Shown here piece by piece: positions 1 through 19,671 of a DNA stretch of 28,473 nt; within the stretch, counting starts at the first letter, position 1; every line of letters starts with the position of its first letter. Source of the stretch: a virus; the UHGV virus genome UHGV-0135791; one strand, given 5' to 3'. Under the pieces are notes generated by a model. The model saw only the letters and a program-made list of their open reading frames with translations. It was not told the DNA's origin and did no database searches. Position numbers and translations under genes: made by a program.

Positions 1-118
1 ACACTAGGTATGAATCTATCTATTCAGTAGAGCGGGTAATTGTCCGTAACCTGAAACTTAAGCCGGGCGTTTCTTTTTGCGGGATGGTTGGCGTGTAACA
101 AACACCAATAAAATTTAA

Positions 119-147
119 TTGCACGCTGAGATAGAATAGGCTACTAT
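119..147 (+). promoter_or_regulatory. sigma70-like early promoter, TTGCAC-N17-TACTAT
   Basis: -35 TTGCAC 119-124, 17-nt spacer, -10 TACTAT 142-147. The block AATAGGCTACTATTCA (135-150) recurs nearly identically in two minus-strand promoters. Confidence 0.45.
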
Positions 148-178
148 TCATTTACACGAACGAGAGGAGAGACAGAAG

Positions 179-328
179 ATGGTTACTTTGATGATTATGG
201 AATTCGAAAACAGCGCTGCGACCTATCGCGAGATGACTATGGCGCAGGCGTACCGTCTGGCGTCAAACGGCAACTTCTACAAGGCTCAAATCATCAATGA
301 GTTCGGGGTAATTGACTATGAATTTTAG
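179..328 (+). CDS. small early protein, 49 aa, unknown function
   Basis: ATG 179 preceded by GAGAGGAGAGAC Shine-Dalgarno block; open to TAG 326-328; below the ORF track size cutoff. Confidence 0.45.
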   Translation: MVTLMIMEFENSAATYREMTMAQAYRLASNGNFYKAQIINEFGVIDYEF

Positions 329-590
329 AAGCTACACCGTGACTGTTGATTTTGAGGGGCTGGAGTTGCCCCTCCCTAACAACTACAGGTATATAACTCG
401 TGACCGTTTCGGGTTTATTCAGGGGTGGCGGAACAAACCAACAGACACTGAGTTCGGGATGTCAGGAGGAGAAGAGTTGCCGATCACGTTCGGACATCAA
501 AGTAGCAATGAAGAACTTAAAACGGTGATTCGTAAGTATCGCCGCCGTGGCAACACGGGGCTTATCGCGATAACAGGCGCTGTTGAATAA
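318..590 (+). CDS. hypothetical early protein, 90 aa
   Basis: Track ORF 312-590; first ATG at 318; overlaps the upstream gene by 11 nt. Confidence 0.5.
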   Translation: MNFRSYTVTVDFEGLELPLPNNYRYITRDRFGFIQGWRNKPTDTEFGMSGGEELPITFGHQSSNEELKTVIRKYRRRGNTGLIAITGAVE

Positions 591-609
591 ACGAGAGGAG
601 AGACGGGAG

Positions 610-828
610 ATGTTCCTGGAATGTAAATCCTACGATGGCTATTGGGTGCTCACTAAAAACGACCTGTACCACCTCAAAGAAGACGGCGACGAGAGCCGCT
701 GCTACATAATAGACGACAACGGCACTGAACTTGATGTCTATTACACCGGGTACGGTCGCTGGGCGTTATCCGCAGACGATGACTTTGTGTTCGAAGAATA
801 TAACGGAGAGGAGACAGAAGATGAGTAA
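610..828 (+). CDS. hypothetical acidic early protein, 72 aa
   Basis: ATG 610 directly after CGAGAGGAGAGACGGGAG; within track ORF 583-828. Confidence 0.6.
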   Translation: MFLECKSYDGYWVLTKNDLYHLKEDGDESRCYIIDDNGTELDVYYTGYGRWALSADDDFVFEEYNGEETEDE

Positions 829-1336
829 CAAAAACGAAGTATTCGAGTACCTGATTGACCAACTACGGCAGCAGGTAAATAGCCGCCAGTGCGAAGACCT
901 GGCCCACGAGGTGCAGTCACTTAAGAACCAGTTACGTGATGCTTCGGCACAGATTAAGGAGTTGACACTCGCGCTCGATAGTTCGGATAACGAGGTTATG
1001 TGCCTTCGCTCAATCGTCGACATAAACCCTAAAGGTGCGATTGGGTACATCCGGCGGGCAAATAGCGCAATGACTGGCACCATGCGCCGCCAATACCTTA
1101 GCAAAGCACTTGAGGAACTCGGATGTAAGGACACGCCAGAGCAATCCGGCTGCCGTAAGGAAGATACCCACGAGTGTTACCATAACTGGCGTTTCGTTAA
1201 TGGCAAGGCTCCCGCCGTGTGCATCAATTGCGGCGCGACTAAATCCAGCGAGTGTGAGCACGAATGGCGAGTCGCAACCTTTTATGGGGCCAGAGTATCC
1301 CCGACGTACTGCCGTAAATGCGGGTTAAAGAAATGA
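821..1336 (+). CDS. hypothetical protein with N-terminal coiled-coil-like region and C-terminal Cys-rich zinc-ribbon-like region, 171 aa
   Basis: ATG 821 after GGAGAGGAGACAGAAG; C-terminus carries CINCG and CRKCG pairs; stop overlaps the next start (ATGA). Confidence 0.6.
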   Translation: MSNKNEVFEYLIDQLRQQVNSRQCEDLAHEVQSLKNQLRDASAQIKELTLALDSSDNEVMCLRSIVDINPKGAIGYIRRANSAMTGTMRRQYLSKALEELGCKDTPEQSGCRKEDTHECYHNWRFVNGKAPAVCINCGATKSSECEHEWRVATFYGARVSPTYCRKCGLKK

Positions 1337-1533
1337 CCAGCATCCTTTTTATCTGGACACTGACCGCAGGCCAGATGCAACTCGCGGCATCAGAAACGTT
1401 TTATTCACTGGAGGCGTGCCAGGTTGCGGCACGCAACGCAGAGAACGCGCACTTCCTGTTTCAGGATAAGCCGATTGATACTGAGGTACGCGCAACATGC
1501 TCAACGAAACGATTAGCTAAGCAGGAGAAGTAA
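1333..1533 (+). CDS. small protein with hydrophobic signal-like N-terminus, 66 aa
   Basis: ATGA stop-start overlap with upstream gene; N-terminus MTSILFIWTLTAGQMQLAASE. Confidence 0.4.
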   Translation: MTSILFIWTLTAGQMQLAASETFYSLEACQVAARNAENAHFLFQDKPIDTEVRATCSTKRLAKQEK

Positions 1534-1535
1534 TT

Positions 1536-1739
1536 ATGGTGCAGAGATATTCTAAGTATGGGTCTGACAACCATTTCATTGACCGCCACGGGAAGTGGGT
1601 TAAGTTTGAGGACTACCAGAATCTTGACCTAAAGCTGTTGGAAGTTGAAGCCGAGTTACAGAAATACAAAGACCAGTTTCCGGATTACGTCGAGTGCGCG
1701 AATTGTGGGTCAGTTACACATGTGGAAGGGGTGGAGTGA
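1536..1739 (+). CDS. small early protein, 67 aa; paralog of the next gene
   Basis: RBS AGGAGA then ATG 1536; begins MVQRY; ends with CANCGSVTH. Confidence 0.55.
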   Translation: MVQRYSKYGSDNHFIDRHGKWVKFEDYQNLDLKLLEVEAELQKYKDQFPDYVECANCGSVTHVEGVE

Positions 1740-1921
1740 TGGTACAGAGATATGAGGTTAGAGGGAGTGAAATTGGAAGTGGTGCGGATTGGGTCGCGGT
1801 CGTTACCTATGAGGATTACGTAAAACTTGAGCTTAAGTTACGTAGGCTCGCCAAACAGGTGATAGACCGCCCGTGCAACTGGAAGACGTATGAATTAGCG
1901 CGCGAGATTCTCGACTTATGA
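1739..1921 (+). CDS. small early protein, 60 aa; paralog of the previous gene
   Basis: TGATG stop-start coupling; also begins MVQRY and shares the EDY..L.LKL motif. Confidence 0.5.
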   Translation: MVQRYEVRGSEIGSGADWVAVVTYEDYVKLELKLRRLAKQVIDRPCNWKTYELAREILDL

Positions 1922-2211
1922 CACTCGCAACTGACATCCTGAAACGAAGCGGCATTACACCGCTGTCACCGAGAGCTAAAACACAGATATACAAGCGCCG
2001 CTGTAACGCGCTGTACCTTGAGATTCAGGCCAGGCGCAAAGCTATCCGCGCCTGTGGATTCCAGAACGGGAAGGCCGTGAATCTCGGTGAGTTTAAAACA
2101 CAGGAACGCACCGCTATCGCAAATCGGTTATTTAATTACTGGAAATCGCTGGGGTATGAAGATATTCCGACTAAACCGCAGAGACGACAATACATCTGGA
2201 GGCACAAATAA
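1918..2211 (+). CDS. hypothetical basic protein, 97 aa
   Basis: ATGA overlap with upstream gene; Lys/Arg-rich. Confidence 0.55.
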   Translation: MTLATDILKRSGITPLSPRAKTQIYKRRCNALYLEIQARRKAIRACGFQNGKAVNLGEFKTQERTAIANRLFNYWKSLGYEDIPTKPQRRQYIWRHK

Positions 2212-2241
2212 ACCGTTATTAGGATAATTCCTACCCGTGGT

Positions 2242-2282
2242 ATCCTCCAGTTACTGCATACTTAATACGCACCTGGAGGATT
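2242..2282 (+). promoter_or_regulatory. stem-loop sequestering the holin Shine-Dalgarno
   Basis: 9-bp inverted repeat ATCCTCCAG (2242-2250) / CTGGAGGAT (2274-2282) with 23-nt loop; GGAGG at 2276-2280 lies in the 3' arm, 6 nt before the TTG start. Confidence 0.5.
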
Positions 2283-2286
2283 CATC

Positions 2287-2595
2287 TTGGATAAATTTAC
2301 TGAAACAGTAACGGGGTGGCTTCTCGCTGCCGCTCTGGCTGGTGGGGTCATCGGACTACGACAACATAAGTCCGTTATTTCTGGCCCTATCGACGGATTC
2401 TGCTTTATCGCAACCGGCTTCACCTGCGCCGTATTTGGCGCACCTCTCGCAGCTCAATGGTTTGGTATCACGGGCGACCGTGAAATCGCTGGCCTGGGCT
2501 TTATCATCGCTGTTCTCTGGATGCCTATCTATTCCCGTCTCTCCGGTATCGTCGCCGGAGAATACATCGCACGTCGAGGGGGTACAGATGAATGA
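2287..2595 (+). CDS. holin (putative, three predicted TMDs), TTG start
   Basis: 102 aa with three hydrophobic segments and a charged C-terminus; immediately upstream of the endolysin; no in-frame ATG near the 5' end. Confidence 0.6.
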   Translation: MDKFTETVTGWLLAAALAGGVIGLRQHKSVISGPIDGFCFIATGFTCAVFGAPLAAQWFGITGDREIAGLGFIIAVLWMPIYSRLSGIVAGEYIARRGGTDE

Positions 2596-2860
2596 GTTAT
2601 TCTGGTTCGGTGGTATGCTGGCAATCGGAGGCACATCGCTGTTTAATGTATACCATCCCAGCGTTGACGACGGGTTATTTGGTCGCGTGCTCTATATCCT
2701 GACCGCTATCATCTGCGCTGCCGGTTGTATCCACCTGTTACAAGGCAGCATGTCACCAACGTTGCCTGAGACATTAATCACATTAGTTGCGCTGCGCCAG
2801 ATTCGCCAGGCGTGGCTGTCATACGGAGGATACAAGCGTGTCTCGAAATATTTCAGATAA
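2588..2860 (+). CDS. second lysis-cassette membrane protein (holin or antiholin-like), 90 aa
   Basis: ATG 2588 overlaps the holin stop; two hydrophobic helices; ends 22 nt into the endolysin gene. Confidence 0.5.
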   Translation: MNELFWFGGMLAIGGTSLFNVYHPSVDDGLFGRVLYILTAIICAAGCIHLLQGSMSPTLPETLITLVALRQIRQAWLSYGGYKRVSKYFR

Positions 2861-3326
2861 TGGATTGCATTTCACCGCCGCGTTCGAGGGGTTCCGAGGA
2901 ACTGCATATCGTGCTACTCCGAACGAGAAGTACCTGACTATTGGCTACGGGCATTACGGGCCAGACGTAACCCCAGGTAAGACCATCACACCAGGACAGG
3001 GCTTGTTGTTACTGAATCGCGATATGGCTAAGGCCGTAGCTGCGGTTGACGCAGCAGCCCACCATTCTCTCACGCAGGCACAGTTCGACGCTGTGTGCGA
3101 CCTGGTGTATAACGCAGGTGCTGGCGTGATTGCGGCTACTACAGGCACGGGTGAGGCGCTGCGCTCCGGCGATGTTGCGACGCTGCGTGCCAAGCTGGCG
3201 CTGTTCATCAACCAGAACGGCAAACCGCTCCTCGGCCTGCGTCGCCGCACGGCTGGTCGCCTGGCGCTGTTCGACGGTAAACCGTGGCAAGAGGCAGAGG
3301 CTATTGGGCGCGCGGTGAAAGGTTGA
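2838..3326 (+). CDS. endolysin, GH24 (T4/P22 gp19-type) lysozyme
   Basis: GTG start 7 nt after ACGGAGGA; translation has the P22 gp19-like pattern (ISDNG..., IGYGH, QAQFDAVCDLVYNAG, LGLRRRTAGRLALF), matched from memory. Confidence 0.8.
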   Translation: MSRNISDNGLHFTAAFEGFRGTAYRATPNEKYLTIGYGHYGPDVTPGKTITPGQGLLLLNRDMAKAVAAVDAAAHHSLTQAQFDAVCDLVYNAGAGVIAATTGTGEALRSGDVATLRAKLALFINQNGKPLLGLRRRTAGRLALFDGKPWQEAEAIGRAVKG

Positions 3327-4817: not shown

Positions 4818-5049
4818 TACCAGCATTCCGAACCTGATTAAAGAATTCGGCACGATGGCGGAGACATGCCGACAAACCGGCATCAACGAAATGACTATTC
4901 GCAAGTACAGCAAAGACGTAGACTGCGAGCGCCATGTAATTTATAACAACCGTCTGATGACGCACGTTAAGACAAGCCCGGTGTTATTCACGCGCCGCGG
5001 TATCACAAAGACTGAGCAACGTATTGCTAAAGAGGAGAGTAAGGAATGA
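4813..5049 (+). CDS. hypothetical protein, 78 aa, possible HTH
   Basis: ATGA overlap at 4813-4817; segment AETCRQTGINEMTIRKYSK resembles a helix-turn-helix. Confidence 0.45.
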   Translation: MITSIPNLIKEFGTMAETCRQTGINEMTIRKYSKDVDCERHVIYNNRLMTHVKTSPVLFTRRGITKTEQRIAKEESKE

Positions 5050-10311: not shown

Positions 10312-10342
10312 AAGGCCCCGTTATGGGGCCTTAGTTTTATTT
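10312..10342. terminator. bidirectional rho-independent terminator
   Basis: AAGGCCCC-GTTAT-GGGGCCTT hairpin with T-rich flanks on both strands, between convergent genes. Confidence 0.7.
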
Positions 10343-10858
10343 AAATCGCGCTGGCATTAGCACCATAAATGCAGTGTTTGAAAACGATATTTTGCATCCT
10401 CTGGTTTGGTCCTGGAAATCGAAACGAGCAATTTCATTTTTGTACGCCTTAGAAATCTTGTGCGCGTCTGCCAAGTAGGGCATGGCGAATCCTATGCTAT
10501 CAACTGCCCCCGGCGTGATGTGCGCCACACGTCGCCAGTCAGGAAATTTTCCGTCTACAACATCCACCGGAAGTGTACATATAAGCGCACAACTATCATC
10601 ATAGAAAGAAACACTGCTGATGTCATGGTCTACTTCCGCGTAGTTAAATTTAGAAGGCTCTCTCCCTTTTATGTCTATGAGAACCCCATTCTCAACGTTT
10701 GTCTTAACGTTGTCGCAGAACAATCTACGACCGTCCGTAGACACTATCAATCCTTCCGGGTCTATGTAAAAAGCATTAAAATAATAGCGCACATCATTTT
10801 TAGCTCTGCATATTTTTGCCCCTATATACGCAGGGAAAGTAATTACTGTAGTAACCAT
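10337..10858 (-). CDS. truncated DnaN (beta sliding clamp) homolog, domain II-like, 173 aa
   Basis: Segments [38 protein letters not shown] and C-terminal [11 protein letters not shown] parallel E. coli DnaN [45 protein letters not shown] and AAYVVMPMRL (from memory). Own promoter, GAGGAGGAG RBS, terminator; AT-rich relative to flanks. Confidence 0.55.
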   Translation of the reverse strand: [173 protein letters not shown]

Positions 10859-10886
10859 TTTAACTCCTCCTCGTTTCGATAACTGA

Positions 10887-10915
10887 ATAGTACCCTATTA
10901 TGTTGGTGTCTGCAA
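10887..10915 (-). promoter_or_regulatory. leftward sigma70-like promoter, TTGCAG-N17-TACTAT
   Basis: Read on the minus strand: TTGCAG acaccaacataataggg TACTAT tca; -10 region identical to promoters at 119-147 and 19703-19731. Confidence 0.5.
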
Positions 10916-19479: not shown

Positions 19480-19671
19480 TCACTTCTCTTTGACATTCGA
19501 GTTGCACGCCCAGATTAAGATAAATACCCACGGCAGCAGAATCCAACCAAGAAACAGATTGGCCATGAATATCGCCAGCTTTGCTTTATGGTTGCGGAAA
19601 TAGGCAACTAAAAAAGGCGTAAAGTACGCGAGCAGTGCAAACAGGATTAAGGAAACTGGTAAACTGGACAT
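19480..19671 (-). CDS. superinfection immunity (Imm-like) membrane protein, 63 aa
   Basis: Two TMDs with pattern FLVAYFRNHKAKLAIFMANLFLGWILLPWVFILIWA, resembling the Imm_superinfect family (from memory); first gene after the leftward promoter. Confidence 0.55.
   Translation of the reverse strand: MSSLPVSLILFALLAYFTPFLVAYFRNHKAKLAIFMANLFLGWILLPWVFILIWACNSNVKEK

Follow-up and report, generated by a model that had tools for sequence, protein, structure and literature searches.

A 23-nt Translation Initiation Region from a Promoter-Leader Block Is Repeated at the Borders of Small-Gene Cassettes in a Kagunavirus Genome

Introduction

Small accessory genes that sit at gene borders together with expression signals, and the modular linker or boundary sequences found with them, are known from lambdoid phages (morons) through the work of Hendrix, Juhala, Clark and co-workers and of Susskind & Botstein, which is discussed in PMC2839356. 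In T4-type phages, promoter-early stem-loop (PeSL) elements act as mobile regulatory cassettes (Arbiol et al. 2010, PMC2839356; Comeau et al. 2014, PMC4122927), and experiments mapped their crossovers between the −10 hexamer, the Shine-Dalgarno (SD) sequence and the ATG (PMC2839356). The start-associated sequences (SAS/ESAS) of Cluster K mycobacteriophages have a 13-bp consensus, GGGATAGGAGCCC; the Cluster K genomes have 93 such sites in all, scattered over the right half of each and often accompanied by 17-bp inverted repeats (Pope et al. 2011, PMC3203893). Here we describe a 23–24-nt translation initiation region (TIR) that is present in three copies near the left end of virus genome UHGV-0135791 (28,473 nucleotides, the whole of which is called the window below). 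The window belongs to Kagunavirus (Guernseyvirinae, ~43-kb siphoviruses of E. coli), and 261 phage records match parts of its first 3 kb in a mosaic fashion.

The first copy of the unit is the 3′ end of a conserved block, P_A, with a putative promoter and leader; the other two lie behind the small genes g2 and g3, and the genes that follow the three copies are g1, g3 and g4. We consider it probable that the unit is a duplicated expression signal, combining a ribosome-binding site (RBS) with a short homology linker for the gain and loss of gene cassettes.

In its working the element is most like PeSL. Both P_A and PeSL are conserved regulatory blocks of ~100 bp that reach up to the ATG and flank ORFans in hyperplastic regions, and both are proposed homology linkers that keep inserted genes expressed. 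Relatives lacking the inserted open reading frame (ORF) keep a single PeSL element, which is also what we find for g1-g2, the g3-g4 junction being looser. However, each PeSL element contains its own promoter, whereas here the promoter accompanies copy 1 only and the internal copies are the last 23–24 nt of the block. PeSL also has a stem-loop terminator component ahead of its promoter, whereas no terminator-like hairpin is predicted here on the + strand at 1–3300, including the interval between P_A and the holin and endolysin genes (2287–3326), so that the cassettes stay in one operon. Two defining features of PeSL, the promoter and the stem-loop, thus fail in the internal copies. PeSL hosts are T4-type phages, and the present case is a ~43-kb siphovirus lacking the T4 recombination machinery.

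The resemblance to SAS lies in an asymmetric motif, always in one orientation, with AGGAG a few bases before the ATG of unrelated non-structural gene families and with conservation beyond the need for 16S pairing. The two differ in consensus (GGGATAGGAGCCC vs AACGAGAGGAGAGACAGAAG, which is how the motif reads in the window), with only the AGGAG core in common, in number (many dispersed sites vs three clustered copies, or four genome-wide) and in the clear origin of the present unit as a duplicated promoter leader with presence/absence polymorphism of its cassettes. The cassettes of the window have one repeated TIR in common and, unlike lambdoid morons, carry no promoter or terminator of their own. 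Integron arrays likewise line up small genes that have no promoters of their own behind a single promoter, each cassette border bearing a repeat, but they use folded attC/attI sites and an integrase, whereas the repeats here are direct, purine-only 23-mer RBSs. In the examined regions of the record of a relative, Schulenburg, no gene is annotated as an integrase, and no attC-like inverted repeat is present at the borders; the element is not an integron. The targets of T4 RegA likewise share a sequence that overlaps the initiation region of several phage mRNAs, but they are AU-rich rather than purine-rich and have a regulator, which was not found here, where the set of targets is variable and mostly one gene per genome.

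Results

Three Copies of One Unit

The three copies and the genes around them are as follows.

159–181, + strand: TIR copy 1, AACGAGAGGAGAGACAGAAGATG; 3′ end of the leader, AGGAG SD sequence, 9-nt spacer and ATG of g1.
590–612, + strand: TIR copy 2, AACGAGAGGAGAGACGGGAGATG; 21/23 positions (91%) identical to copy 1; promoter absent upstream.
801–823, + strand: TIR copy 3, TAACGGAGAGGAGACAGAAGATG; putative RBS of g4, within the last codons of g3.
179–328, + strand: g1, 49 aa; Pfam DUF7170 (E = 3e-18), PHROG 4653; opens the g1-g2 cassette.
318–590, + strand: g2, 90 aa; PHROG 1972; lacks the motif; ends in a TAA stop that runs into the beginning of copy 2.
610–828, + strand: g3, 72 aa; single-gene cassette, always directly upstream of g4.
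821–1336, + strand: g4, 171 aa; PHROG 6094; conserved anchor to the right of the variable slot.

A preliminary description of this DNA had reported near-identical start regions at ATGs 179, 610 and 821 (ACGAGAGGAGAGACAGAAGATG at 160–181, ACGAGAGGAGAGACGGGAGATG at 591–612 and CGGAGAGGAGACAGAAGATG at 804–823), and both coordinates and sequences proved exact. It had called the three genes consecutive, which is incorrect, since g2, whose start region differs from the unit and overlaps g1, separates the first motif-bearing gene from the second. A repeat search of the window returned a single family of three 23-nt direct repeats with spacings of 431 and 211 nt. Copy 3 is 74% identical to copy 1 in an ungapped comparison and matches it at ~20/22 positions with 1–2 indels.

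The repeat is well above chance. With up to three mismatches, the 20-mer matched twice against 0.00 expected from 100 dinucleotide shuffles, and the 9-mer GAGAGGAGA occurs exactly three times on both strands of the 28,473 bp, each time at one of the three ATG sites. In a crude census of ~52 gene starts, the unit was found at none of the ~49 others, where RBSs are ordinary and varied; this rules out a generic RBS shared by most genes of this phage. Conservation also goes further than an SD sequence needs, as had been claimed: copies 2 and 3 match copy 1 in the upstream AACG and in the downstream spacer ACAGAAG, the non-SD positions of the unit being AACG and GACAGAAG.

The similarity among the copies ends at the ATG, and blastp detects no mutual similarity among the g1, g3 and g4 proteins, which rules out tandem gene duplication. 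Since bases outside the SD sequence are shared, the likeness stops at the ATG and the genes behind are unrelated, the copies are better explained by duplication of the signal than by gene duplication or convergence. A host-derived element is also ruled out: when 596 Gb of bacterial and archaeal sequence was scanned for the 21-mer, six matches turned up in unrelated taxa, none of them enteric, where ~4 are expected by chance on our own estimate.

Origin in the P_A Promoter-Leader Block

The block from which the unit comes has the following parts.

98–181, + strand: P_A promoter-leader-TIR block, ~84–95 bp; homology to relatives begins at ~98 and ends exactly at the ATG (blastn breakpoints).
119–124, + strand: −35-like hexamer TTGCAC, read from the sequence; conserved in all family members.
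142–147, + strand: −10-like hexamer TACTAT, overlapped by the inverted repeat GAATAG (134–139)-N4-CTATTC (144–149).

The layout of P_A is ..CCAATAAAATTTAcTTGCAC-N17-TACTAT-TCATTTACACAAACGAGAGGAGAGACAGAAG-ATG. Among 39 unique instances, conservation is ~90–100% per column from the A/T-rich part upstream of the −35 hexamer through the ATG and ~40–50% outside, and blastn finds the 84-bp block in 117 phage records, all of them Kagunavirus-like. The −35 and −10 hexamers are too weak for a consensus promoter scan; by its layout P_A is a putative sigma-70-like promoter. Copy 1 is the 3′ end of this block and the only copy preceded by TTGCAC-N17-TACTAT; copies 2 and 3 follow coding sequence of g2 and g3. 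The unit has two parts, AACGAG, which belongs to the leader of a promoter family, and AGGAGAGACAGAAG, which is specific to P_A. Because both parts are present in copies 2 and 3 and the promoter is absent, these copies are partial duplicates of P_A.

The promoter family consists of near-identical sigma-70-like sequences with the core ATAATAGGnTACTATTCAnTTA....AACGAG, in at least five copies per genome. Its pattern, TTGCA(C/G)-N17-TACTAT with an ATAATAGGnTACTATTCA core and a leader ending in ..AACGAG, is found in the leader of copy 1 and at 10915–10856 (−). The window contains three family members, namely P_A, P_B (− strand, ahead of ORF 10858..10337) and P_C, which precedes 19671..19480.

10856–10915, − strand: P_B promoter-leader, TTGCAG (10915–10910)-N17-TACTAT (10892–10887)-tcagttatcgaAACGAGGAGGAGttaaaATG (10858–10856); before the 'DnaN-like' ORF 10858..10337.

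The relation noted earlier between the unit and the leader of the 'DnaN-like' gene is real: ACGAGGAGGAG is found at 10864–10874 on the minus strand, ahead of this ORF. P_A and P_B have in common the family segment TACTATTCAnTTAnnnnAACGAG and, in addition, the first three codons, ATGGTTACT. The likeness is explained by membership of both leaders in one promoter-leader family, not by a shared translational operator. The protein itself (10337–10858, −) matches PHROG 3007 with E = 7e-36, a family annotated as 'RusA-like Holliday junction resolvase'; its match to a processivity-factor PHROG is weak (E = 1e-5), and it has none in Pfam.

Seven 'phage promoters' with the consensus tgAATAGTa-ccTATTat-T were predicted by PHIRE in Kagunavirus fBC-Eco01 (PMC9825357), and blocks of the P_A family were published as 'phage RNA polymerase promoters'. 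The core of the P_A family is the reverse complement of that consensus, and the examined parts of the Schulenburg record contain no gene annotated as an RNA polymerase. The inverted repeat GAATAG-N4-CTATTC spans the spacer and the −10 hexamer in the family blocks of the window (119–149 (+), 10915–10887 (−) and ~19731–19703 (−)), and in relatives (locus L020) this palindrome recurs outside the window, where it overlaps a promoter of consensus type, TTGACA-N17-TATAGT. The palindrome resembles an operator for a dimeric helix-turn-helix protein; Schulenburg encodes a Cro-like regulator. An annotated terminator of Schulenburg lies ~150 nt upstream of P_A, outside the repeated unit.

Gain and Loss of Cassettes in Relatives

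When the window was compared with 17 IMG/VR relatives, homology stopped at 181–185 in 11/17 and at 612–613 in 6/17, and it resumed at 796–822 in all. The P_A leader and TIR precede at least ten unrelated types of first ORF, joined at the ATG every time; these include g1, g3, g4, MVQRYE, MDTNGAW, MFNAVARC/MNLIKAI, MKAVTKD, MNNFISQ, MNNKPVQ and the 'VCDGD' family (genes without a name are designated by their N-terminal residues). The [g1-g2] and [g3] cassettes occur in all four combinations of presence and absence.

P_A-TIR-g4: loci L046, L050.
P_A-TIR-g1-g2-TIR-g4: loci L005, L006, L008, L009, L021, L053, L067, L070.
P_A-TIR-g3-g4: loci L010, L027, L056.
Both cassettes: window, L020/L022, L057.

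A full copy of the unit stands behind g2 in 16/16 sampled g1-g2 loci and is followed by one of four genes (g4, g3, MYKYLTV or MGGYGSW), each of which is also found directly behind P_A elsewhere. Because the g2-side copy is constant and the next gene varies, [g1-g2+TIR] behaves as a discrete 431-bp unit bounded by direct repeats. The g1-g2 cassette is present in 22/117 records and g3 in 9/117; g2 is conserved in 22 phage records. Most Kagunavirus genomes (~25/37 sampled) have a single copy at the P_A locus, and whole genomes have one to three copies there plus one at another leader. The spacer between GAGAGGAGAG and the ATG is 5–7 nt among relatives and variable in sequence. All genomes with g3 have a motif-like g3-g4 junction, but a full match to the unit is present only in the window.

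A leader single-nucleotide polymorphism, AGACGAG, seemed to move with g3: L010 and L027 have it at P_A, and L020 has it behind g2. However, the P_A of L054, where g3 is the second gene, has it too, and it is missing from the window, L056 and L057; we regard it as suggestive only.

Many seemingly unrelated first ORFs of 39–58 aa (in L004, L011, L012, L016, L023, L026 and others) follow a common pattern, ..LxEL..Y(E/A)....(V/I)CDGD.., and probably form one fast-evolving family of small proteins, judging by this pattern; a member also lies upstream of g4 in Salmonella Jerseyvirus SM86, where the motif is missing.

Genes of the Slot and Their Operon

Where g1–g4 have Pfam or PHROG matches, these are to families of unknown function; g3 has no match in either database. 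Copy 3 is coding as well, lying within the last seven codons of g3 (..EEYNGEETEDE*), and the g3 stop overlaps the g4 start as ATGAGTAA. Given the lack of a predicted terminator before the holin and endolysin genes, the label 'early' used previously for these genes is not established, and the P_A operon appears to run on into holin and endolysin.

Further downstream, the adjacent small genes g6 and g7 begin with the same 15 nt (1536–1550 and 1739–1753; ATGGTRCAGAGATAT, MVQRY) before diverging; in L033 the P_A TIR is directly followed by an MVQRYE.. gene. The common start may be another short gene-start repeat within this variable region.

Copies and Similar Junctions Beyond the Locus

A fourth copy, AAACGAGAGGAGAGAaacaaATG, stands at another promoter leader outside the window in 8/8 whole Kagunavirus genomes. 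This copy (CCAAACGAGAGGAGAGAAACAAATG; L020, minus strand, ~11632; Schulenburg, ~34100–34300) lies behind a consensus sigma-70 promoter, and the gene after it encodes a conserved acidic protein of 150–172 aa (MLEQFLKLLERF.., PHROG 3127). In some genomes the same leader precedes other first genes (MAKRKDYD, MHTDSITI, MKFRVDMQ, MTNNRKAK).

Outside Kagunavirus, Escherichia phage CY1 (OQ357823.1, 41791–42000; Drexlerviridae, Christensenvirus) has a g3 homologue of 44% identity between tail genes, as do TR2 and TR3. In CY1 it has the leader TTTACACAAACGAtAGGAtACAGAAATG upstream and a terminator-like hairpin of its own downstream, as in a textbook moron, and leader and TIR are much better conserved than the coding sequence. 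Since the homologue keeps a Kagunavirus-like leader, leader and gene move together as an expression cassette. Of all the observations, the CY1 case speaks most strongly for possible selection on the leader itself. Both the IMG/VR pattern scan, which returned only Kagunavirus contigs, and the 84-bp blastn search, which returned only Kagunavirus-like records, found no further leader outside the genus, so that Christensenvirus CY1/TR2/TR3 are the single exception.

Two other sites of the same general kind were seen. At 5018–5048 of the window (ATG at 5046) there is a second conserved junction followed by variable genes, AACGYATTGCTAAAGAGGAGAGtrrggaATG, again with the core (G/A)AGAGGAGAG; it corresponds to the end of a NinH-like gene in Schulenburg, and at least ten unrelated small ORFs follow it in relatives. 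Some 1–1.8 kb upstream of P_A in relatives (e.g., L001, 2120–2190), a further copy of the promoter, P_up, precedes genes of ~60 aa that begin with MFKKGQLVK and then differ strongly, or alternatively an unrelated MNKATAS.. gene. The conserved part of P_up reaches ~27 nt into the coding sequence, which suggests that these are chimeric gene starts.

Discussion

We propose that the 23–24-nt unit is the transcribed 3′ end (leader, AGGAG SD sequence and purine spacer) of the Kagunavirus sigma-70-type P_A. This block stands at the head of a hypervariable slot for small accessory genes, with g4 and the lysis genes following downstream. In the window the slot holds [g1-g2], which carries a second full copy on its 3′ side, and [g3], with a third, looser copy at the g3-g4 junction. 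Each copy would serve as an ordinary RBS, with AGGAG at a spacing of 7–9 nt, for whichever ORF stands behind it. Being identical at gene borders, the sequence could also act as a short homology linker through which phage or host recombination adds, removes and re-orders cassettes between co-infecting relatives; copies could cross over unequally, or a circular [cassette+TIR] intermediate could recombine into a resident copy. The PeSL elements of T4-type phages offer an experimental precedent for such a mechanism (PMC2839356). Phage recombination functions are plausible, since Schulenburg is annotated with a T7 gp2.5-like single-stranded DNA-binding protein and a VRR-NUC nuclease, as well as helicases. 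The repeat, its origin in the promoter-leader block, the presence or absence of cassettes and their junctions at the ATG are observed; promoter activity, RBS activity and recombination inside the repeat are what we infer from these sequences.

Several observations weigh against this account. Copy 3 is the weakest evidence of duplication among the three: its position in relatives reads GGAGAGGAATCAGAAG, GGGGAGGAACCAGAAG or GGGGAGGAACCGGATG, less motif-like than in the window, and the g3 homologue of another phage (L065, 57% identity) ends in the acidic tail FEEEEGE*, so that the purine richness of copy 3 is in part native coding. Bas74 (L055) has g3 behind a different RBS, ggaggtagacgATG, with an ATG junction lacking the motif, phiWAO78-1 has g3 behind another small gene, and the downstream cassette borders at 1333, 1536, 1739 and 1918 carry no motif; since ATG-precise junctions exist without it, shuffling does not depend on the repeat. 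Any unrelated inserts between conserved flanks would give breakpoints where a conserved block ends, and such breakpoints are no proof of crossovers within the 23 nt. Efficient homologous recombination in E. coli has a lower limit of ~23–27 bp, for which a unit of 23–24 nt is borderline. Finally, the predicted unpaired probability of the three mRNA regions (0.66, 0.47 and 0.54) is not clearly higher than that of other genes (0.49 ± 0.11), and the idea of an exceptionally accessible, structure-free TIR is unsupported.

Some of these points would fit an alternative history, in which the copies are passive scars left by rare illegitimate insertions near the leader, retained as RBSs with no later role in recombination, and cassettes are exchanged through the long conserved flanks, the P_A block forming the left-hand one and g4 with the lysis genes the right-hand one. 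The motif-free precise junctions in L055 and at the downstream borders, the mere 23-nt length of the repeat and the restriction of more than one copy to a minority of genomes all speak for it. However, [g1-g2+TIR] fronts four genes that each also follow P_A elsewhere, and all four cassette combinations exist; crossovers between repeats produce such patterns more easily than repeated illegitimate events, and we hold the passive history to be rather unlikely, though the likeliest of the rivals. Independent convergence, in which each gene would have evolved the same optimal, purine-only, unstructured start region for high expression with no duplication, has little in its favour. Purine-only tracts cannot self-pair, GAGAGGAGAG-type RBSs occur at other Kagunavirus junctions (e.g., window 5030–5048, AAGAGGAGAGtaaggaATG) and copy 3 of the window is nearer to the motif than its orthologues; but copy 2 agrees with copy 1 at 21/23 positions, including bases with no role in 16S pairing, where shuffles predict none, the predicted accessibility is unexceptional, and ~50 other genes use ordinary, varied RBSs. 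We find convergence very hard to credit.

The preliminary description had offered either a site for a translational regulator or a duplicated expression signal. The latter stands, the signal being derived from P_A and coming and going with g1-g2, and the former has received no positive support. As a translational operator, the extended sequence would be the RNA site of a RegA-like repressor, a CsrA-like protein or a small RNA that co-regulates the motif-bearing genes. Conservation past the SD core, the further copy at the other leader in every whole Kagunavirus genome sampled, the retention of the leader with a 44%-identical g3 homologue in another phage family and the precedent of the unexplained start-associated sequences of Cluster K mycobacteriophages (PMC3203893) would all agree with this. 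Against it, the genes behind the motif are interchangeable accessory ORFs with mostly one copy at the locus, the spacer varies in length and sequence, no sequence complementary to the 20-mer is found in the window with up to three mismatches, and no RNA-binding regulator came to light; common descent from the promoter leader accounts for the extra conserved bases. An operator is improbable on this evidence. We give similarly little weight to a bolder idea, that the promoter-leader-TIR blocks, namely P_A, P_up and the leader outside the window, together make up a 'gene-capture platform' that needs no integrase and whose leader and TIR are actively targeted. A phage recombination or annealing function might then recognise the DNA, or a regulator the RNA, and new ORFs would be fused precisely at the ATG and expressed at once. 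This would explain the at least ten unrelated ORFs at one junction and the leader kept with a diverged gene in another family.

Taken together, the repeat is real and can be explained, and it is of modest interest as a case of genome plasticity in a phage genus that has been well sampled. For annotation it carries a caution, as the conserved start regions here reflect shared signal ancestry and not a regulon. The P_A slot would be a natural, insertion-tolerant and expressed site that could serve the engineering of Kagunavirus, and the swapped accessory genes are likely to be host-takeover or anti-defence genes. If the unit is a working linker, it would provide a simple, testable case of accessory-gene swapping without breaking expression in a genus of therapeutic-type coliphages with >100 sequenced members, and it would extend the PeSL idea from T4-type myoviruses to siphoviruses in the form of a minimal, RBS-only linker.

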